Of a DNA stretch of 37,657 nt, positions 1 through 27,364 are shown in pieces (within the stretch, counting starts at the first letter, position 1; each line of letters opens with the position of its first letter). The notes beneath the pieces were generated by a model. That model worked only from the letters and a program-made list of their open reading frames with translations. It had not been told where the DNA came from and searched no databases. The DNA is from a virus (Duplodnaviria > Heunggongvirae > Uroviricota > Caudoviricetes). The DNA lies in IMG/VR virus record IMGVR_UViG_2516143071_000007; one strand, 5' to 3'. The position numbers and the translations under genes were made by a program.

Positions 1-60
1 GGTATCCGTTCTGCTGAAGTGTCATGGCGTTGATTTTACGGTGACTCTTCGACAGTGAAA

Positions 61-84
61 AGAAAAAAGGCCGCAGAGCGGCCA
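61..84 (-). terminator. Rho-independent terminator candidate downstream of the 138-aa minus-strand ORF
   Basis: GGCCGC-AGAG-GCGGCC hairpin at 69-83 followed on the minus strand by a T-run (plus-strand AAAAAA 62-68). Confidence 0.55.
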
Positions 85-189
85 TAAACACAAACAAAAA
101 TCAATAAGTTAGATAATTATCAAAGACTTACAGACACACAAAAACACAGCCAACCACAACAAATAACAGGGATGTGGTCACTTTGTGGA

Positions 190-606
190 TCATTCACTCC
201 CCTCTTTTTCCTTATTTCGTTGAACGCCAATTGCAACACACGTACTAAGCAAATCTTTACATTTCTCTACGTCTTCAGACTTACGCAATTTGATGCTTTT
301 TACAGACTGCGGGCTACTGTCCGTAGCACGATACATCGTTATTTCAATATCATTTCGGTCTAAGAGTCCCATAATGGCTTTTGCAACCTCCACACCCTTC
401 TTCGCGAAATCAAAGAATAGAGCAAGTTTATATGGATTTTCGACGGAAAAAACTTCAATTTTGCTAAAACCAACATCGTGTAGAGAAAAATATTGCCCAA
501 CCTCATCTCGAAGTTCTGGATCGCATACAATGTCTATTCTCCAGTACTGACCTAAATGCAAATCGCTATTAACTGTTTTTTCCACAACATCCTCCTTACC
601 CAGCAA
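190..606 (-). CDS. Hypothetical protein, 138 aa, AT-rich cargo gene downstream of int
   Basis: Clean ORF; its ATG (606-604) overlaps the int stop (596-598) by 11 nt, suggesting co-transcription; visibly AT-rich; no motif recognised. Confidence 0.55.
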   Translation of the reverse strand: MLGKEDVVEKTVNSDLHLGQYWRIDIVCDPELRDEVGQYFSLHDVGFSKIEVFSVENPYKLALFFDFAKKGVEVAKAIMGLLDRNDIEITMYRATDSSPQSVKSIKLRKSEDVEKCKDLLSTCVAIGVQRNKEKEGSE

Positions 607-1570
607 TAGGATTAAATCTCACCGCATCCTGCAAGTAATCCGGCGCAAGATGGGCATAAATCATCGTTGTCTGAATCTTTGCGTGCCCCAGAATTTTCTG
701 GAGCGTCAGAATATTGCCGCCGTTCATCATGAAATGACTGGCGAAGGTGTGGCGCAGCGCATGAACAGCCTGACCGTCAGGAACATCAGATGCGACCGTT
801 TTGATGACATCGCGAACCAATGGATAATCCAGCGTCGGAAACACCAGTTTCCCGCCCCGTTTTTTGATCTTTTCAAACAGGCTTTCAGAAATAGGAACGG
901 TACGGTTTTTGCTGTTCTTCGTTTTTGAAAAAGTGATTCGACAATGAAGAACACGGCGCTGCTCCAGTACCGCTACCTCGCCCCATCGCGCCCCGGTCGA
1001 CAGAAGGATTTCGACAGCCAGCCGTTCATCGGGATTTTCAGCCAGTGCATCCAGCAACTGAACACATTCAGACTTACTCAGATATCCCATTTCGCGCTCG
1101 TTAACCTTCATTCCTTTAAGGCCTTGAACGGGGTTATCGTTAAGAAAATGGCCGGATGAGATGAGTGCGGTAAACATCGCGCTTAACGCCCCAATCTCTC
1201 GATTTATGGTGCTGGGCTGTATCCCCTGCTCTATCCTGGACACACGTAGCTCGGTGAGCATTGTTGTATTAAGTTTATGCACGCACGGGTCATCCATTGC
1301 CTCACTCAAGCGCAGCAATTTAAGGCGCGTGTTATGCCCTGACTTCATTAGCTGGCCGTGGTATTTCCACCACAAGTCAATAAGCACTGACAGAGGACGG
1401 CGATCAATAGAGTTTCCTTTCCACTCATTGTTATGCTGTTGCGCCAGCACCCACCGCTCATATAAAACTGCATCCGATTTCGTTTTAAATTTTTTGCGGA
1501 TGCGTTTGCCTTTACGCCCCTCAGGGCGCATGTCAAGAAGATACCCTCCCGGAATTGATTTTATGCTCAT
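596..1570 (-). CDS. int: Tyrosine recombinase, P2-type phage integrase
   Basis: C-terminal HALRHTFASH...IQTTMIYAHL catalytic region; start chosen at internal ATG (MSIKSIPGG, 1570), the ORF-track start at 1720 would overlap the repressor gene; position next to repressor. Confidence 0.9.
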   Translation of the reverse strand: MSIKSIPGGYLLDMRPEGRKGKRIRKKFKTKSDAVLYERWVLAQQHNNEWKGNSIDRRPLSVLIDLWWKYHGQLMKSGHNTRLKLLRLSEAMDDPCVHKLNTTMLTELRVSRIEQGIQPSTINREIGALSAMFTALISSGHFLNDNPVQGLKGMKVNEREMGYLSKSECVQLLDALAENPDERLAVEILLSTGARWGEVAVLEQRRVLHCRITFSKTKNSKNRTVPISESLFEKIKKRGGKLVFPTLDYPLVRDVIKTVASDVPDGQAVHALRHTFASHFMMNGGNILTLQKILGHAKIQTTMIYAHLAPDYLQDAVRFNPIAG

Positions 1571-1619
1571 TCGTGAAACCCCAGCGTTACAAGACCACCA
1601 TGCCCCCAGCGTTCCATGA

Positions 1620-1931
1620 TTAGCCGGGCTGTGTACCAGTCTTGCGGGATTTTTGAGAAGACGATGTGTTTTCTGGCCCATCAGGGGAGAGAGAGGGACT
1701 GATCTGCCCAGCAGCCTCATTTGTTTTTCCCGTCATAAGCCATATAGTGTATTTTTCGAAATCCTTAGAATTAATTACGCGATCAACAACGCTTAAACCA
1801 ACCTCTCTTTTACCGCTCTCATAATTCTTTATAGTTCCGAGATTTATCCCAGTAACATCAGCAAACTCAGCTTGAGTTAACCCTTCACTTTTCCGTATCT
1901 CTTTCAGTTTTTTTTCGTACCCACTTGACAT
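1620..1931 (-). CDS. Immunity repressor, HTH_XRE type (P2 C / 186 CI position)
   Basis: HTH segment LTQAEFADVTGINLGTIKNYESGKR; about 100 aa; upstream of int and divergent from early operon. Confidence 0.8.
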   Translation of the reverse strand: MSSGYEKKLKEIRKSEGLTQAEFADVTGINLGTIKNYESGKREVGLSVVDRVINSKDFEKYTIWLMTGKTNEAAGQISPSLSPDGPENTSSSQKSRKTGTQPG

Positions 1932-1941
1932 GGTGGTCTCC

Positions 1942-1986
1942 AGACGACTAAATTAACCCTAAAAGTCGCCTATAGACGACTTTTAG
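1942..1986. promoter_or_regulatory. Early-switch operator: direct AGACGACT repeats and a 10-bp inverted repeat
   Basis: AGACGACT at 1942-1949 and 1974-1981; CTAAAAGTCG (1959-1968) N8 CGACTTTTAG (1977-1986); lies between divergent repressor and cox-position genes. Confidence 0.55.
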
Positions 1987-2022
1987 CAACAAATAACCAC
2001 AGACTGAACAGGTTATCACATC

Positions 2023-2301
2023 ATGACAAAGCTCTTGAACACATACGAGCAAGCGGATTTTGAGCGTTTGGCGGCGTTCTACCCATACCGCGATGAGCAT
2101 GGATTACCGGTACTCGAAGAAAGCCTGAAAGATTACGCGAAGCGTACCAATCAAACTGTTAATGCAGTGAAAAGGCAGGCTGACAGAGCAGCCCTTCCCA
2201 TCAACCAAGAAGAAAAAAACTCAAAACGTACAGTAAATCTCTTCGCAATTTTCCTGAAAACCATCAGAAACGCAGAGAAATACGTGCAGATGACAAAATA
2301 A
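2023..2301 (+). CDS. Cox/Apl-position early protein (putative excision/switch regulator), 92 aa
   Basis: First gene of rightward early operon divergent from repressor; assignment by position only, no sequence similarity to P2 Cox recognised. Confidence 0.45.
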   Translation: MTKLLNTYEQADFERLAAFYPYRDEHGLPVLEESLKDYAKRTNQTVNAVKRQADRAALPINQEEKNSKRTVNLFAIFLKTIRNAEKYVQMTK

Positions 2302-4456: not shown

Positions 4457-4559
4457 GAAACCAGAACATGCACACACAAAAAAACCGCTTGCCATGCCGC
4501 AATCAGTCAGGTTACATTTCCGCTGCACCTCATAAAACGGGTGCCGGGATTTCCACCCC

Positions 4560-4770
4560 GCTGACTATACACGCGCACAACCGCGCCAGCGGTTTTTTTG
4601 TGCGTACCGCATCGCCACGTCTTTTTCGCACACGAATTATGGTGGGGCGTATGGGGCCGACTTTGGTCGGGCCGGGTTCGTGTATAGCCGGTTGTGGAAA
4701 CCCTGTACGTCTCACCACCCCGAGTTTTCCACCTCTGGATGGTGAGTTTTCAAAACTTACTATACACGAG
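4560..4770. promoter_or_regulatory. Three copies of CTATACACG in a 320-bp noncoding gap upstream of the replication operon
   Basis: ACTATACACG at 4564-4573 and 4759-4768 (plus), CTATACACG inverted at 4679-4687; no plausible ORF with a ribosome-binding site in the gap. Confidence 0.4.
4579..4600 (+). terminator. Rho-independent terminator candidate
   Basis: AACCGC-GCCA-GCGGTT stem-loop followed by TTTTTTT. Confidence 0.5.
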
Positions 4771-4778
4771 GCCACACC

Positions 4779-5009
4779 ATGGCAAACCGCAAACAACAGC
4801 GCGCATACGCTGCGCGTCGTCACATCCAGACTGAAATCAACCGCAGACTTTACCGCGCATCACGCGTCGCGCAAATCATGCACATCAATATGCTGCATGA
4901 GCGCAGCCACGCACTATCAAACATTTATTCCGCCTCTGTTTTCAGCTATCTGGCGGATGATCTGCACGAGCTTCAACAGCTCATCCAGCAGCAAAACAAA
5001 CTCCATTAA
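4779..5009 (+). CDS. Hypothetical protein, 76 aa
   Basis: ORF immediately after the third CTATACACG site; weak GAGG upstream. Confidence 0.4.
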   Translation: MANRKQQRAYAARRHIQTEINRRLYRASRVAQIMHINMLHERSHALSNIYSASVFSYLADDLHELQQLIQQQNKLH

Positions 5010-8384: not shown

Positions 8385-9344
8385 ATGAAAATTTGTATCG
8401 ACGACGGCTCCACCAACATCAAGCTGGCATGGACTGAGAACGGCGAACGCCGCAACGCCATCAGCCCGAACAGCTTCAAGTCGGAATGGTCTGCGCCGTT
8501 CGGTGGCACGCAGCCCGCGAACTACATGCTTGATGGCGTGCGCTATGGTTTTGATCCGGTCAGCGATCGCTTTGTCCAGACGACCGACACGCAATACCAA
8601 TACAGCGATGTGAATGTCATTGCCATTCATCACGCGCTGGTCAAATCAGGCATCACACCACAGGAGGTGGATGTGGTTGTCACCCTGCCACTGAGCGAGT
8701 ATTTCGACACAAACGCACAGCCGGACATGACCAATATCAACCGCAAAAAAGCGAACGTTATGCGCCCGGTGGAGTACCAGAACGGCGAAGCATTCACTAT
8801 CCGTAACGTACGGGTTATGCCTGAATCCATTCCGGCTGGCTTTAAGGCACTGGCTGACATGAGTCCGTTTGAATCCCTGCTGATTGTGGATTTGGGCGGA
8901 ACCACGCTGGATGTGGCAAAGGTTCAGGGGCAACTGGCAGGTATCAGCCAGGTGTTTTGCGATCCACACGTAGGCGTTTCTCTGATGGCCGATGCCGTAC
9001 TGTCGGTGATGGCCACTAACGGTATGCGCACCAGTCACCACATCGCCAATACCATTATCGAACATCGCCATGATGAAGCCTGGCTGCGCCAGCACATCCA
9101 CAATGACGCGCATTACGCCAGCCTGATGGCGGTTATTCGTGAAAAGGAAGAAACACTGAAACAACGCGTGATCCGCGCGCTGGCGGGTTTTTCGGGTTAC
9201 GGGCGGGTGATGGTTGTCGGTGGTGGGACGGAGATTGTGGCACCCGCTATCCGCGAAGCCTGCGGAGTTAATGCGACTTTCATCGCGGACGGGGTGCCAC
9301 AGTTTGCTCTGGTTAATGGGCTGTACGCAATGGACAAGGAGTAA
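8385..9344 (+). CDS. parM: Actin-like segregation ATPase, ParM/StbA family
   Basis: N-terminal IDDGSTNIKL, SPNSF, YSDVNV, VMPESIPAG, DLGGTTLD, SGY..VMV(V/I)GGG blocks match my recollection of plasmid R1 ParM along the whole length. Confidence 0.8.
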   Translation: MKICIDDGSTNIKLAWTENGERRNAISPNSFKSEWSAPFGGTQPANYMLDGVRYGFDPVSDRFVQTTDTQYQYSDVNVIAIHHALVKSGITPQEVDVVVTLPLSEYFDTNAQPDMTNINRKKANVMRPVEYQNGEAFTIRNVRVMPESIPAGFKALADMSPFESLLIVDLGGTTLDVAKVQGQLAGISQVFCDPHVGVSLMADAVLSVMATNGMRTSHHIANTIIEHRHDEAWLRQHIHNDAHYASLMAVIREKEETLKQRVIRALAGFSGYGRVMVVGGGTEIVAPAIREACGVNATFIADGVPQFALVNGLYAMDKE

Positions 9345-9348
9345 ACCA

Positions 9349-9663
9349 ATGACGACACCAACCAGACGGATAAGTTTCTATCTGAAGCCAGTCGCCGTCA
9401 ATAGTGAACGGGAGGCGTGTAATTACCTCGACAGCCTGCCAGCCTCTGAACGCAGCCGCGCGCAACGCGCGGCCTTTCTGGCCGGGCTGGCACTCATAAA
9501 ACGCGATCCTGCATTTGCCTATTGGTTGGCCGAATGGCCGGAAGAAGGAGCTGCGCCAGCCAAGAATAATATTCAGAGTAAATATGCCAGCGCACCTGCC
9601 ACCGGAAGCAATCACAGCACTAGCGAGATAAGAAAGAACATTCAGTCATTTTTCCCAGAGTGA
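9349..9663 (+). CDS. parR: ParR/StbB-like centromere-binding adaptor, about 104 aa
   Basis: Directly downstream of parM with AGGAG; N-terminal RRISFYLKP...LDSLP..ERSR..RAAFLAGLAL resembles R1 ParR ribbon-helix-helix N-terminus from memory. Confidence 0.6.
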   Translation: MTTPTRRISFYLKPVAVNSEREACNYLDSLPASERSRAQRAAFLAGLALIKRDPAFAYWLAEWPEEGAAPAKNNIQSKYASAPATGSNHSTSEIRKNIQSFFPE

Positions 9664-9682
9664 AAACAGGAGAGGAGCATCT

Positions 9683-10114
9683 ATGGCAACTATCCCCAAA
9701 AAATGGTTACAACGCAAAATTGCAGACCTTGAATCGTGTCGTGAAGACATCCCGTTTGGCCTTGATGAAAACGATCACAATATGTTAATCGCACTGAAAA
9801 TCGCACTCACATCGCTGGAAGCGAAACCTGTTGCATGGACTGATGATGAGGAACTGCGTGATGTCAAGCAGTATGGTTTCGGTGAGATATTTCAGTGTCC
9901 GCCAGATAAATACGCGGACCCGCGACGTGTTATCCCTATGTATCGAGAGCCGCCAGCGCCAGCAGTACCAGATGGACTGGTTAGAGCGGTGCGTTTCTAT
10001 GAACAGGTAAAGCGTGAGAATCCGCCAGTCGAAACTGGAGTATGGAAAGACGCTATTGACTGGGTGACCAAAGAGGCTTGCCAAGCTGTAGACATTGGCA
10101 TCAAAGGAGAGTGA
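9683..10114 (+). CDS. Hypothetical protein, 143 aa, in parMR operon
   Basis: AGGAGAGGAG Shine-Dalgarno; no motif recognised. Confidence 0.55.
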   Translation: MATIPKKWLQRKIADLESCREDIPFGLDENDHNMLIALKIALTSLEAKPVAWTDDEELRDVKQYGFGEIFQCPPDKYADPRRVIPMYREPPAPAVPDGLVRAVRFYEQVKRENPPVETGVWKDAIDWVTKEACQAVDIGIKGE

Positions 10115-18516: not shown

Positions 18517-18658
18517 CCCACCCACATGGGGAAACCTCGGAATATGGGGCGACCGCCTTCTGGATGCACTGGAAACCTGTAACGCGGATAAACGGGCCAT
18601 TGCTGAACTGGATAAGAGAATAGCCGAACTGACACACCAGACGGGAGTAACACAATGA
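18377..18658 (+). CDS. o-spanin, Rz1 / P2 LysC-like lipoprotein
   Basis: Starts in the +1 frame inside Rz; signal MNAPTLCLTLVLLTGCAG with LTGC lipobox; Pro-rich; extends past the Rz stop. Confidence 0.65.
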   Translation: MNAPTLCLTLVLLTGCAGTQNAPGPAPSVRLIPQTLTMPVTPPPFPDPPTWGNLGIWGDRLLDALETCNADKRAIAELDKRIAELTHQTGVTQ

Positions 18659-20535
18659 CCAGTAAGAACTTTGCACTGATTACAGCCATGACACAGGCTG
18701 AACTGACTCAAAAGGTGAATGAACATCTTGCGAAAGGGTGGCATCTTCAGGGGGAGACGCGGGTTGCCTACGAACCCGGCACCCCGTGGTATCTAATGCA
18801 GGCAATGGTGGCCGATGGCACTACAGACATCTCACCTGATTCCCCCCAGCACGGCAGCGTGCCGGAGTGGTATTACGTGGTGGTACTTGCTGGTCAATCC
18901 AATGCCATGTCATATGGTGATGGAATGCCGCTGCCGGATTCTTACGATGCGCCCCACCCACGCATTAAGCAACTGGCCCGTCGCAACACAGTGACTCCCG
19001 GTGGTAAAGCATGCGCATTTAACGACATCATTCCGGCAGACCACTGCCTGCATGATGTTCAGGATATGAGCGCACTGAATCATCCGAAGGCAGACCTGAG
19101 CAAAGGGCAGTACGGCTGTGTCGGCCAGGGCTTACATATTGCCAAAAAACTGCTTCCGTATATCCCGAATAACGCGGGGATCCTGCTGGTACCATGCTGT
19201 CGTGGTGGTTCGGCATTCACCCAGGGCGCGGAGGGGACATTCAGTGCGGACACGGGGGCCAGCCAGGATTCGGCACGCTGGGGTGTGGGTAAACCGTTAT
19301 ATCAGGACCTGATCGCACGCACCAAAGCGGCATTACAGAAGAACCCGAAAAATGTGTTGCTGGCGGTGTGCTGGATGCAGGGCGAATTTGACATGAGCGC
19401 TGCCACCTACGCACAGCAACCGGACCTGTTCACGGCCATGCTGAAGCAGTTCCGTACTGACCTTTCCGGATTTAACGCGCAGTGCCATGGCGGCAGTGCT
19501 GCAGTTGTACCGTGGATTTGTGGCGACACGACATATTACTGGAAAAACACATACGGCACACAGTATGACTCCGTCTACGGCGCGTACAAAAACAGGGAGA
19601 GCGACAACGTTTTCTTTGTGCCGTTCATGACCGACGGTAACGGCAACAACACGCCCACCAACTTACCGGCAGAAGACCCGGATATTGCTGATGCAGGTTA
19701 TTACGGCGCGCAATCCCGTAGTAATGGTAATTGGGTATCGTCAAATCGTCCGACACATTTCAGTTCATGGGCGCGCAGGGGCATTATTTCGGATCGCCTG
19801 GCAACCGCTATTCTGAACGCAGTTGGTCGAACCAGCGCCTTCATCAGCGGTACCGCACCGGAGATTAAACCCTCGCCCGGCGGCGACACTCCATCGGGGC
19901 CGTCTGATGGTGACACATCCGTTCGTACAGTCTCCCTGCTGCCGACAGCCGGAGAGGCTGCTGCGCAGGGCTGGACCATCACCGGCGGCAGTGTTGCGCT
20001 GGAAGATGGTGTGTTTAAGGTTACCAAGCAGAGCAATAAAACCTGGTCCCTGATGCATCCGGTGGATGACGCAGTCTCCCTGCTGACACGGGGTGGCAGA
20101 CTGAGCTGTAAGTTTCGACTGTCAGGCGCACTGACCAACAACCAGTTCGGTCTGGGAATTTATCTGTATACCGATGTAGCGTTACCTGACGTCGTGGCGA
20201 TGACCGGGACTGGTAACCCGTTCCTGATGTCGTTCTTCACCCAGACCACAGACGGCAAACTGAATCTGATGCATCACAAGAAAGCCGGAAACACAAAGTT
20301 GGGCGAGTTCGGGAATTACAGTAACGACTGGCAGACGCTGGAGCTGGTGTTCACCGCCGGCAGTGCCACGGTTACTCCGAAACTGAATGGAGTGGCTGGC
20401 CCGGCATTCCAGGTCATAAAAGACAGTCTGACACTGGGGCTGAATGCGCTGACGTTAACTGATATCACTAAAAATGCCGCGTACGGCGTCGATATCGGCA
20501 GCCTGGTGCTGGAAATCAATAATCCCGCAGCATAA
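18655..20535 (+). CDS. NanS-p-like sialate O-acetylesterase (DUF1737 N-domain, SGNH/SASA esterase core, C-terminal lectin-like domain)
   Basis: AGQSNAMSYG matches the GQSNM catalytic-serine motif of the sialate O-acetylesterase family; N-terminus resembles DUF1737; ATGA coupling to Rz1 stop. Confidence 0.65.
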   Translation: MTSKNFALITAMTQAELTQKVNEHLAKGWHLQGETRVAYEPGTPWYLMQAMVADGTTDISPDSPQHGSVPEWYYVVVLAGQSNAMSYGDGMPLPDSYDAPHPRIKQLARRNTVTPGGKACAFNDIIPADHCLHDVQDMSALNHPKADLSKGQYGCVGQGLHIAKKLLPYIPNNAGILLVPCCRGGSAFTQGAEGTFSADTGASQDSARWGVGKPLYQDLIARTKAALQKNPKNVLLAVCWMQGEFDMSAATYAQQPDLFTAMLKQFRTDLSGFNAQCHGGSAAVVPWICGDTTYYWKNTYGTQYDSVYGAYKNRESDNVFFVPFMTDGNGNNTPTNLPAEDPDIADAGYYGAQSRSNGNWVSSNRPTHFSSWARRGIISDRLATAILNAVGRTSAFISGTAPEIKPSPGGDTPSGPSDGDTSVRTVSLLPTAGEAAAQGWTITGGSVALEDGVFKVTKQSNKTWSLMHPVDDAVSLLTRGGRLSCKFRLSGALTNNQFGLGIYLYTDVALPDVVAMTGTGNPFLMSFFTQTTDGKLNLMHHKKAGNTKLGEFGNYSNDWQTLELVFTAGSATVTPKLNGVAGPAFQVIKDSLTLGLNALTLTDITKNAAYGVDIGSLVLEINNPAA

Positions 20536-24004: not shown

Positions 24005-26137
24005 ATGAGTACCACAACACGAAAATTTAAAACCGTTATCACCGATACAGGTGCCCAAAAATTAGCTCAGGCAGCCGCGCCAGATGGTAAGCCTGTCCGC
24101 CTGACTCATATGGCCGTGGGCGACGGTGGCGGCGCGTTGCCCACACCAGACAGTAAGCAGACCCGTCTGGTGCATGAGGTGTGGCGACACACTGTTAATC
24201 GCGTCATCCTGGACGCAACACATCAGAACCGCATTATTGCGGAGCTGGTTATTCCTCCAGAAACGGGCGGATTCTGGATCCGGGAAATTGGTGTGTTTGA
24301 TGAGCACGGCGATTTAATCGCGGTGGGCAATACTGCCGAAAGTTACAAGCCAGCCGTTGCCGAAGGGTCCGGACGTGCACAAACATTTCGCACCATTCTG
24401 ACCGTATCCAGCACTGCCACTGTGGCGCTTACCGTGGATAACACCATGGTTATGGCCACAGTGGATTACGTGAATGACAAACTGAAAGAACATGAACAGT
24501 CACGACATCACCCGGACGCCTCGCTGACCGCAAAAGGCTTTGTTCAACTCAGTAGCGCCACTAACAGCGATTCTGAAACGCTGGCTGCAACGCCGAAAGC
24601 GGTTAAGGCAGCGTATGACATGGCTAACGGAAAATATACCGCTCAGGACGCCACTACGGCACAAAAAGGGATAGTCCAGCTCAGCAGTGCAACCAACAGT
24701 ACATCTGAAACGCTGGCGGCAACATCAAATGCAGTAAAAGCTGCCTATGACAATGCTGAAAAACGTCTGCAGAAAGCTAAGAATGGTGAGGATATCTCTG
24801 ATAAAGACACCTTTACGAAAAATATCGGTGCCTGCCGTGCATATAGTGCAGAGCTGAATATTGGTGGAGATAGTGAAGCATGGACAACTGCGCAGTTGAT
24901 TTTTTGGCTAGAGAGTCAGGGGGCATTTAACCATCCTTACTGGATGTGCAAAGGCTCATGGGCTTATGCAAATAATAAGGTCATTACAGATACAGGTTGC
25001 GGAAGTATTTGTCTTGCAGGTGCTGTTGTGGAAGTTATTGGCACCCGCGGCGCAATGACCATACGCATTACCACACCGAGTACATCCAGCGGTGAAGGCA
25101 TCCCTAATGCTCAATTTACTTATATTAATCATGGTGATGCTTATGCTCCTGGCTGGCGAAGGGACTATAACTCCAGGAATAAGCCAACAGCATCAGAGAT
25201 CGGGGCGTTACCGTCAGATGGGACAGCAGTATCGTCAGTTAATCTGGCTTCAAAAGGTCGGCTGACCGCCCTGACAGATAATATGCAGGGGGCCACAGGT
25301 CTGGAGTTATACGAGGCGTATAACAACGGATATCCAACAACGTATGGAAATATCATTCACCTGAAAGGGATGACAGCCGTTGGCGAAGGCGAATTACTCA
25401 TCGGCTGGAGTGGTATAAGCGGTGCTCATGCTCCGGCATTTATTCGTTCACGACGGGATACGACCGACGCAAACTGGTCGCCGTGGGCGCAGCTTTACAC
25501 CTCGGCTCATCCTCCTGAAGAGTTTTATCCAGTCGGTGCACCGATTCCGTGGCCATCAGATACCGTTCCGTCTGGTTATGCCCTGATGCAGGGGCAGACT
25601 TTTGACAAATCTGCATACCCGAAACTTGCAGTCGCTTATCCGTCAGGCGTGATCCCTGATATGCGTGGCTGGACTATCAAGGGCAAACCTGCCAGTGGTC
25701 GTGCCGTATTGTCTCAGGAACAGGACGGCATTAAATCGCACACCCACAGCGCCAGCGCATCCAGTACTGATTTGGGGACGAAAACCACATCGTCGTTTGA
25801 TTACGGTACTAAAACGACCAGTTCATTTGATTACGGCACAAAAACTACGAATAGCGCTGGAAATCATTCACACAATATACCTGTTGGTCACACTGGCGCG
25901 GGGAATGGTGTATCAGCCGGTTTTAACGCTGCGTTAGGTACTGGTACCACGTCGAGCGCAGGCGGGCATGCTCACAATGTATATATCGGTGCCCATAACC
26001 ACACTATCGGCATTGGTGCTCATGCCCATTCTGTCATTATTGGTCCCCACGGACACACCATCACCGTTAACGCTACGGGTAACGAAGAAAACACCGTAAA
26101 AAACATCGCATTTAACTATATTGTGAGGCTTGCATAA
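24005..26137 (+). CDS. H: Tail fibre protein, P2 gpH family with divergent C-terminal receptor-binding region
   Basis: Two copies of the phage-fibre repeat [23 protein letters not shown]; His-rich C-terminal repeats ([34 protein letters not shown]). Confidence 0.85.
25775..25852 (+). repeat. In-frame 30-bp tandem repeat inside H encoding [10 protein letters not shown] about 2.6 times
   Basis: Units at 25775-25804 and 25805-25834 plus a partial third; the units differ at several synonymous positions. Confidence 0.7.
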
Positions 26138-26715
26138 TGACATTCAGAATGAGTGAACAATCACGGACCATAAAAATTTATAATCTACTGGCTGGAACCA
26201 ATGAGTTTATTGGTGAAGGTGATGCATACATTCCACCTCATACAGGTCTGCCTGCAAACAGTACCGATATTGCCCCGCCAGATATTCCGGCTGGCTTCGT
26301 GGCCGTTTTCAACAGTGATGAGGCATCGTGGAATCTCGTTGAAGACCATCGGGGAAAAACCGTCTATGACGTGGCTTCCGGCGACGCGTTATTTATTTCT
26401 GAACTTGGCCCATTACCGGAAAATGTCACCTGGTTATCCCCGGAAGGGGAGTTTCAGAAGTGGAACGGCACAGCCTGGGTGAAAGATGCAGAAGCAGAAA
26501 AACTGTTCCGGATCCGGAAGGCGGAAGAAACAAAAAACAGCCTGATGCAGATGGCCAGTGAGCATATTGCGCCACTTCAGGATGCCGTAGATTTGGATAT
26601 TGCGACGGAGGAAGAGGCATCGTTACTGACTGCATGGAAGACATATCGGGTATTGTTGAATCGTGTTGATACAACAGTAGCATCGGATGTTGAGTGGCCA
26701 GTCGCCCCGCAATAA
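26137..26715 (+). CDS. G: Tail fibre assembly chaperone, P2 gpG / Tfa family
   Basis: Follows H with TAATG overlap; 192 aa; Tfa-like N-terminus ([30 protein letters not shown]). Confidence 0.8.
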
Positions 26716-26758: not shown

Positions 26759-27364
26759 CTATTTATACAATACAACACCGCTCTTTTTTGTTATATATGT
26801 GCAGTTCGATGGTATATCTTTATTTATAAAAGACATTGCACCTATTTTTACATTATCCCCAATTTTACGTGATAATCCAATGATGCAACAATTGGCTCCG
26901 ATATCAACGTTATTACCAATTTTTACTCTTGAACCAGGCATGTCACCATCTATCTGTCCAATGGTAGTATTCTGTCGTAACACCAGATTTTCACCAGCAT
27001 CAACAGCAAAATGAACAACAATTCCAGCATGATGGGGAATTGTTAACCCTTTTCCAATATTTGCGCCCAATCCAATTTCACAACCAAATTTGTTAATTAT
27101 TTTACCGTTTAACTTTTTGGCTGCTTTCTTATGTAATTTATTACCATTAATATACATTTCGTTAGCCAACCGCCACCAGAAAAGGAAATTCCGGTTACGC
27201 TGTTTTTTCTCTCTTAAAAGCCTCCAGATATCCATACGTTTCCGCCGAATTACTTCATATTTCCAGAAGTTTTTTAAATTAGTAGAGTCCCCAAATAAAA
27301 CAAAGTGAATTGCCATTAAGTAAGACAGCACGATAATCTCCTTAATTATTATTTCAGACCACAC
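26759..27364 (-). CDS. Hexapeptide-repeat (left-handed beta-helix) O-acetyltransferase, CysE/WcaB-like; AT-rich cargo
   Basis: IGxxxxIG hexapeptide repeats (IGLGANIGKGLTIPHHAGIVV..., IGNNVDIGANCCIIG, IGDNVKIGAMS); start uncertain (27364 or internal ATG 27316); strongly AT-rich. Confidence 0.65.
   Translation of the reverse strand: MWSEIIIKEIIVLSYLMAIHFVLFGDSTNLKNFWKYEVIRRKRMDIWRLLREKKQRNRNFLFWWRLANEMYINGNKLHKKAAKKLNGKIINKFGCEIGLGANIGKGLTIPHHAGIVVHFAVDAGENLVLRQNTTIGQIDGDMPGSRVKIGNNVDIGANCCIIGLSRKIGDNVKIGAMSFINKDIPSNCTYITKKSGVVLYK

Follow-up and report, generated by a model that had tools for sequence, protein, structure and literature searches.

A single-gene cassette in the int-att interval of a P2-like prophage of Escherichia coli

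The tin, old and fun(Z) genes of phage P2 are exclusion genes that are expressed in the lysogen. The accessory hotspots of P2 hold old/tin and Z/fun (PMC9122126; bioRxiv 10.1101/2024.10.15.618418). A survey of P2-like prophages (PMC13586616, NAR 2026) counts their int-att interval among the minor defence hotspots, to which 3% of the P2 systems belong, and remarks that cargo at this position is unusual.

We analysed a stretch of 37,657 nucleotides (the window), an E. coli chromosomal segment with a complete P2-like prophage, and in it a small gene, here called X, at the int-att position (Table 1). Like the cargo described for this hotspot, X is placed between int and att within the att-delimited prophage, has conserved flanks around swapped content, is AT-rich, and is found on the strand of the lysogenic operon. 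Unlike the defence cargo of the hotspot it is not a recognised defence gene (PADLOC); it consists of one small gene, against two in each of the other cassettes seen in this slot, and its relatives also occur across attP, beside hok/ogr. With Tin, Old and Fun(Z) gene X would share the class of non-essential, AT-rich, prophage-expressed genes in P2 hotspots, and this analogy is behind the guess that it serves in defence. Those three are found in the A-Q and tail-fibre hotspots, however, whereas X is found at int-att, and no similarity between X and any of them was detected via the PHROG or PADLOC libraries.

Table 1. Coordinates of the features at the int end of the prophage, and the other gene pairs seen in the same slot
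Feature	Position	Strand	Basis
Host chromosome: btuC upstream region and ihfA-btuC intergenic sequence	1..83	.	genome matches
Intrinsic-terminator-like hairpin (stem 83-69) with T-run; ihfA terminator/att core	57..83	-	terminator scan, MFE fold
attL core AAAGAAAAAAGGCCGCAGAGCGGCC, 25 nt	59..83	.	repeat at attR of HUSEC2011
Phage att arm spacer, core to arm-type repeats	84..171	.	conserved arm
Tandem direct repeats ATGTGGTCA / TTGTGGATCA, putative arm-type Int-binding sites	172..192	+	repeat comparison
Gene X, 131-aa protein of unknown function (WP_000416308.1; phrog_14142)	190..585	-	RefSeq, PHROG, homologues
Exchangeable cassette	194..608 (also ~194-601/608)	.	BLASTN vs sister prophages
Shine-Dalgarno AAGGAGG of X	591..597	-	sequence read directly
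int, tyrosine integrase	596..1570	-	Pfam Int_N 1.5e-28, Phage_integrase 5.3e-20; phrog_1
P2 C-type immunity repressor (HTH_3), presumed first gene of a C-int-X operon	1620..1931	-	Pfam HTH_3 2e-10; phrog_147
Cox-like gene	2023-2301		PHROG match
Slot occupant: 120-aa + 145-aa pair	strains 165, RM9088, E-1246, STEC384	int strand	
Slot occupant: 166-aa + 145-aa "DUF1640" pair	RM9872-C1, SCU-176	int strand	
Slot occupant: 127-aa + 99-aa pair	K_EC180	int strand	
Slot occupant: 257-aa + 125-aa pair	23CRST011 (L027 2588-3728)	int strand	

The prophage and its attachment site

The window aligns to HUSEC2011 (O104:H4), positions 2056610-2094223, at 99.87% identity with 44 gap openings. Across the 37.6 kb these gap openings compare with a single mismatch (locus L002), and so gap-heavy a difference suggests homopolymer or indel errors in either assembly. 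Window 1-700, gene X included, is 100% identical to many complete genomes. The P2-like type is confirmed by the RefSeq annotation of the HUSEC2011 prophage, which lists portal, terminase, P2-family capsid, replication endonuclease and tail genes, ogr and a Cox-like gene. The end of btuC lies directly to the left of window position 1, and the final 141 nt of the window belong to the prophage hok gene. The phage, a temperate one of P2-like type, has inserted upstream of btuC, in the terminator of ihfA.

Every complete E. coli genome searched (5426/5426) matches window 1-83. In the prophage-free genomes the match is confined to these positions and none extends past 83, which places the host-phage junction at 83/84. 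The original prediction had put the left attachment site to the left of the gene and had named the empty integration site as a test for a host origin. Both points are answered: the att core lies at 59-83, window 1-83 is the one part that all these E. coli genomes share, and the gene is absent from the prophage-free genomes.

The core recurs at attR of HUSEC2011 (L002 39874-39898), with two mismatches in the hairpin loop, and there adjoins the ihfA stop codon; the att core is thus the intrinsic terminator hairpin of ihfA. A search for attR, or any second copy of the core, within the window found none, the window stopping ~260 nt before attR. On the minus strand, the terminator scan returned GGCCGCTCTGCGGCC followed by the tail TTTTTTCTTT, with six G-C pairs and a 3-nt loop, and the hairpin also appears in the MFE fold of window 50-200. 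A strong terminator had been predicted to follow the gene. The hairpin and T-run are there, but 106 nt downstream of the X stop codon, and they constitute the attL core/ihfA terminator rather than a terminator dedicated to X. This hairpin would probably end the phage C-int-X transcript as well.

The host integration sites of these P2-like phages are intrinsic terminator hairpins, that of ihfA here and those of raiA and dsbB for a Salmonella relative (L008, L009 ~4605-4630). As the phage core brings its own hairpin and T-run, both the host terminator and the terminator of the phage int operon are restored upon integration.

The att arm (window 84-192) was found in 306 E. coli genomes, independent of the cargo behind it. 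At its inner end, the direct repeats ATGTGGTCA / TTGTGGATCA, which by analogy with the P2 attP are putative arm-type Int-binding sites, overlap the stop codon of gene X (190-192). Paired TGTGG(A/T) repeats recur in HUSEC2011, in its attR arm, and the distant Type B loci described below have them in their att arms.

A gene cassette between int and the att arm

The longest mechanical ORF at this position, 190-606, starts with TTG and would encode 138 aa, which is the gene as it had been predicted. The profile of phrog_14142 (PHROGs v4, function unknown) matches it over the full profile length with an E-value of 5.6e-70, residues 8-135 of the 138-aa ORF aligning with positions 1-128 of 128; the match shows no difference and brings no functional information. 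All homologues start at a Met or Val equivalent to GTG-585, and the RefSeq annotation of the gene is 190-585. Because the beginning of the PHROG profile, the homologue starts and the RefSeq annotation agree, the start is most likely the GTG at 585-583, for a protein of 131 aa, and not the TTG at 606. The predicted minus-strand ORF ending at 190 is therefore a real gene, as the PHROG match, the homologues and the dN/dS values (see below) show, whereas its start has probably to be moved. Counted from GTG-585, the 11-nt overlap with the int stop codon that had been predicted gives way to a gap of 10 nt between the end of int and the start of X. The Shine-Dalgarno motif AAGGAGG lies 5 nt upstream of this GTG and overlaps the int stop codon TAA (598-596), and in strain GF60 the annotated X homologue overlaps int by 17 nt. 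A close coupling of X to the translation of int is plausible.

As had been predicted, the gene is found at the edge of the prophage; it comes after C and int and shares their strand. In the lysogen, X would be transcribed as the last cistron of a C-int-X message that finishes at the att-core hairpin, and would be translated from the strong Shine-Dalgarno sequence overlapping the int stop codon. That X is lysogen-expressed hotspot cargo is well supported; its co-transcription with C and int we infer from the gene order, from a scan of the minus strand from C to the att core that brought up neither promoter-like nor terminator-like sites, and from P2 as the paradigm, on which the C-int operon structure assumed here partly leans.

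The GC content of X is 39% against 49% in int, in agreement with the AT-richness that had been noted. When compared with the homologues of Salmonella and GF60, X has a dN/dS of 0.14-0.25 at a dS of ~1.2-1.3, and the dS of int between those genomes is equal. The low dN/dS indicates that X is under purifying selection, and the equal dS indicates that it has long travelled together with int in this lineage. The exact X sequence was found on at least 1000 contigs. Gene X occurs in 159 of the 5426 complete E. coli genomes (~3%), and major pathogenic and outbreak lineages such as O104:H4, O111 and O26 carry it. In every one of the matches listed, each of 415 nt, an annotated phage integrase lies beneath that match as well. 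Gene X is prophage DNA rather than host DNA.

The borders of the exchanged unit follow from a comparison with three sister prophages at the same site (L003, L004 and L005). BLASTN of window 1-2000 aligned positions 1-191/193, and again everything from 602/609 onward, at 98.4-99.4% identity; nothing aligned between 191/193 and 602/609, where the sister prophages carry unrelated inserts. As the alignment breaks at 191-193 and 602-609, the exchanged unit consists of X and its ribosome-binding site, bordered by the last int codons on one side and by the att-arm repeats on the other. Gene X occupies the slot in 159 of the 306 arm-bearing E. coli genomes. Nine of the genomes sampled had alternative occupants, and at least five cassette types can be distinguished. 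The proteins of the alternative cassettes gave no significant Pfam or PADLOC match. Three of the pairs, 120+145, 166+145 and 127+99, have a common architecture, in which the first protein is cytoplasmic, with a Zn-ribbon-like CxxC...CxxC pattern, and the second is a coiled-coil protein that has a hydrophobic anchor at its C-terminus; this two-gene architecture exists in at least three divergent alleles (4193-5231 in L003, 3609-4284 in L004, 3626-4422 in L005; also L024, L025, L026 and L029). The anchors of the coiled-coil proteins score 1.6-2.7 on the Kyte-Doolittle scale and may be membrane anchors. A relationship of X to the Zn-ribbon proteins was considered and rejected (hhalign probability 0.1%). 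The 125-aa protein of the 257+125 pair contains an R-N-D-A-D-Y motif which, by eye, is reminiscent of some HEPN-like families.

The C repressor allele WP_000094527.1 occurs both with X and with another cassette, so X is not bound to an immunity type. In the window X is the single gene between int and the att arm, and the Type B relatives of X are likewise separate single-gene units, unlike a type II toxin-antitoxin or two-gene abortive-infection system. Together, the data firmly support the view that X is carried by the phage, is under selection, and by itself forms a cassette in a slot beside attP that is prone to recombination.

The protein family and its two genomic contexts

A direct homologue search returned 12 clusters, from E. 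coli or Salmonella only. Among 1.84 billion representatives, HMMER found a few further relatives, at 30-39% identity; its other matches (P0020-P0023), long repetitive proteins with E-values of 3e-7 to 4e-4 and 3 to 12 matching stretches each, were set aside as repeat artefacts. In profile searches the family closes at ~60-70 clusters, all from Enterobacterales and all at the ends of P2-like prophages, and within these clusters the source databases supplied no functional name. A third homologue search, with a profile of 45 sequences, yielded no extension of the family and no informative fusions, and none of 50,697 deposited phage genomes was matched by tblastn with X or with a Type B homologue.

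The family members could be sub-divided by identity to X and by position. In Type A (at least 46% identity) the order is C, int, X, att, as in the window; such loci lie at btuC in Salmonella and beside greA in a metagenome contig. In Type B (~28-39% identity), found in Salmonella, Yersinia, Klebsiella, Citrobacter, Pectobacterium and E. coli, the gene lies at the other end of the prophage, where the host gene is followed by the att core, the arm repeats and X, and then by hok/ogr/D, which have the opposite orientation. One and the same phage end of Type B was found at two host terminators, raiA and dsbB, with sequences that are identical from the hairpin on, which implies that X is a part of the phage. 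When the phage map is drawn as a circle, X invariably has the orientation of int and falls between int and hok/ogr, just outside one or the other att arm.

Intact Type B loci contain, between the arm and X, a divergent Com-family Zn-ribbon regulator and an orphan N6/N4 DNA methyltransferase (L020 3092-4579; L022 2590-4024). In the Salmonella locus L008 (~4730-4890) the methyltransferase is reduced to a 3' fragment, and elsewhere the position of X in Type B is filled by a Zn-ribbon/TM2 protein. The DNA upstream of X in Type B is AT-rich, with promoter-like hexamers and inverted repeats, and X itself lies outside the int operon there. Transcription of these genes by read-through from int across attP was considered and dropped, since the core is a terminator on that strand and the com-methyltransferase unit intervenes. 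Expression specific to the lysogen is therefore not a conserved property of the family, and a strict dependence on lysogenic C-int transcription is not supported, as the ~30%-identical relatives lie across attP, apart from int. Truncated or frameshifted copies of X occur in some genomes (P0002, P0004, P0006, P0007). In the raiA-pheA interval of Pectobacterium (L031, L032 4001-7067), a heavily decayed prophage has been reduced to X, which is intact, an ogr-like gene and two ORFs.

The X protein (131 aa, 14.9 kDa, pI 5.3, GRAVY -0.37) is predicted to be soluble and mildly acidic. No membrane helix was found, the maximum 19-residue Kyte-Doolittle mean being 0.99; X thus has neither the transmembrane segment nor the signal peptide of the membrane superinfection-exclusion proteins. 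Homologues are 126-133 aa long with motifs that are invariant across genera. The conserved core comprises A-x-x-I-M-G-L-L-x-R-x-D-x-E-I, K-L-R, D105 and C109; H10, C21 and C45 are near-invariant in the family, position 45 being V in the X of the window. AlphaFold2 gave a model with a pLDDT of 70.5 from 8 sequences, and with a pLDDT of 81 and a pTM of 0.74 from 45 sequences. The predicted topology is that of an α/β protein, with a β-α-β-β-α-β core and a β-α-β extension.

The original prediction recognised no domain, and none emerged from the libraries: X has no match in Pfam or NCBIfam, and PADLOC-DB v2.0.0 returned 0 families at E-values up to 10 for X and 0 families at E-values up to 0.01 for the Type B homologues. 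Pfam searches with 45 family members gave only scattered sub-threshold matches (LytR_C, ACT_9, EACC1 and others), which we take to be due to chance. Sequence-profile searches of the PDB with two alignments returned nothing at an E-value below 0.4, structural searches with the X model gave no informative fold match, and a literature search on the X accession found no paper. No catalytic motif could be recognised. Since X has neither a transmembrane segment nor a catalytic motif, it would most likely act by binding a protein or a small ligand, and not as an enzyme.

Possible functions of gene X

We lean towards the explanation that X is accessory cargo, carried by a temperate phage of P2-like type and with a role in conflict. 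The structural and genomic part of this explanation we hold with high confidence. The functional part is tentative: X may act in phage-phage or phage-host conflict and shield the lysogen from other phages, as other P2 hotspot cargo does. This leaning comes from the hotspot context, the AT-richness and the analogy with other P2 cargo, by which a defence role is plausible; the co-divergence with int and the fixed place beside the att arms could equally fit a role in the phage life cycle. By itself, X is an ordinary uncharacterised accessory gene in an already described hotspot, and mainly a well-delimited candidate for tests, whose borders in the last codons of int and at the arm repeats lend themselves readily to swap experiments.

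A bolder extension of the conflict role, which we consider possible though speculative, would make X the founder of a new family of single-protein conflict effectors, for defence or anti-defence, that has no close structural relative and is limited to the attP-flanking regions of P2-like phages of the Enterobacterales. The int-att slot and its hok/ogr mirror would then be one hotspot centred on attP, and its other occupants, the Zn-ribbon/coiled-coil pairs and the 257+125-aa pair, would be unrecognised systems too. If X or the other slot cassettes are indeed conflict genes, the int-att interval and the hok/ogr mirror would constitute a compact and sharply bounded place to mine for small defence and anti-defence proteins.

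A more specific role in anti-defence, in which X would bind and neutralise an immune protein of the host or of a rival element at infection or induction, seems rather unlikely. It agrees with a small, soluble and mildly acidic protein (pI 5.3) that lacks an enzymatic motif, and with the divergent Com-regulated orphan methyltransferase next to intact Type B X genes, as such an enzyme is typical of self-protection against restriction; anti-RM and anti-CRISPR genes have been reported in some P2-like phages (PMC13586616). However, the methyltransferase link is guilt by association, the gene being absent or degraded in several Type B loci, and no similarity to known anti-defence proteins was detectable with the libraries used. 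The place of Type A X at the end of the lysogenic C-int unit would also be odd for a factor that is needed at the onset of infection.

Alternatively, X could be an accessory of the integration module that modulates Int activity, the assembly of the att complex or the stability of the prophage. Gene X always abuts an att arm, and in Type A its stop codon overlaps the putative arm-type repeats. It has diverged together with int (dS ~1.2 for both), the order int-X-att is kept at both btuC and greA, and in GF60 the annotated gene overlaps int. Against such a role, int genes and arms of 98-99% identity at the same site are combined with unrelated cassettes, so that X is dispensable for integration here, and in Type B attP lies between int and the relatives of X, joined in some loci by further genes. 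Moreover, the acidic character of X does not point to DNA binding, and P2-type phages already have a directionality factor in Cox; a Cox-like gene is present in the prophage. We therefore regard this function as quite improbable.

Two database names would imply a ligand-sensing regulatory (ACT-like) protein or a fragment of an enzyme. The exact X sequence is named "Aspartate kinase" in UniRef (A0AB33I0D7_ECOLX), and a Type B homologue is named "RuvC family protein" in RefSeq (WP_133252896.1; L021 2510-2896). The first six elements of the predicted fold, βαββαβ, are ordered as in ACT and ferredoxin-like domains, and one of the 45 relatives matches Pfam ACT_9, with an E-value of 0.027 that falls short of the cut-off. 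A likeness of this degree is generic to the fold class. In comparison with stand-alone ACT/ferredoxin-like βαββαβ proteins (CutA, PII-like), X has neither a profile match nor an identifiable ligand-binding motif, and carries an extra C-terminal βαβ. Neither name found support. X has no ACT or AA_kinase match in Pfam or NCBIfam, and the PDB profile search brought up no aspartate kinase. WP_133252896.1 has no Pfam or NCBIfam match at E-values up to 10, the PDB profile search was without RuvC, and the element order differs from the βββαβαβ of the RNase H-like core. As no significant Pfam or NCBIfam family was found in the 45 members either, an ACT-like or enzymatic nature is very doubtful.

That X is a chance ORF or a decaying remnant at the prophage edge, as the many mechanical ORFs of similar length in the window and the truncated or frameshifted copies might suggest, has in effect been refuted by the evidence for selection and conservation (a dN/dS of 0.14-0.25 at a dS of ~1.2, the conserved length and motifs, and the exact sequence on at least 1000 contigs), to which the strong Shine-Dalgarno sequence and the confident AF2 model add.

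Besides the int-att slot, the prophage has cargo at other positions. The gpA-portal hotspot, which in P2 is the place of old and tin, contains ParM-like and ParR-like plasmid partition genes and small hypothetical ORFs (window 8385-10114). In the early region two Rfam models match at gathering score, isrK (4525-4599, 63.5 bits) and C4 antisense RNA (4635-4722, 76.5 bits), close to a gene annotated as "derepression protein". A non-core gene for a 626-aa DUF6645 protein lies between the lysis and tail genes (18655-20535). At the classical Z/fun accessory position a serine O-acetyltransferase gene (~26759-27331, minus strand) was found; just upstream of it is an Rfam IS009 match of 192 bits (26480-26678), which overlaps the tail-fibre-assembly gene (26137-26715) in its 3' part. 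Finally, a DUF3800 protein gene (34422-35591, minus strand) and an IS5-like element (~35849-36830) lie between gene D, which is annotated as truncated in HUSEC2011, and ogr; the transposase reading frame of the IS5-like element seems to be broken in the window.
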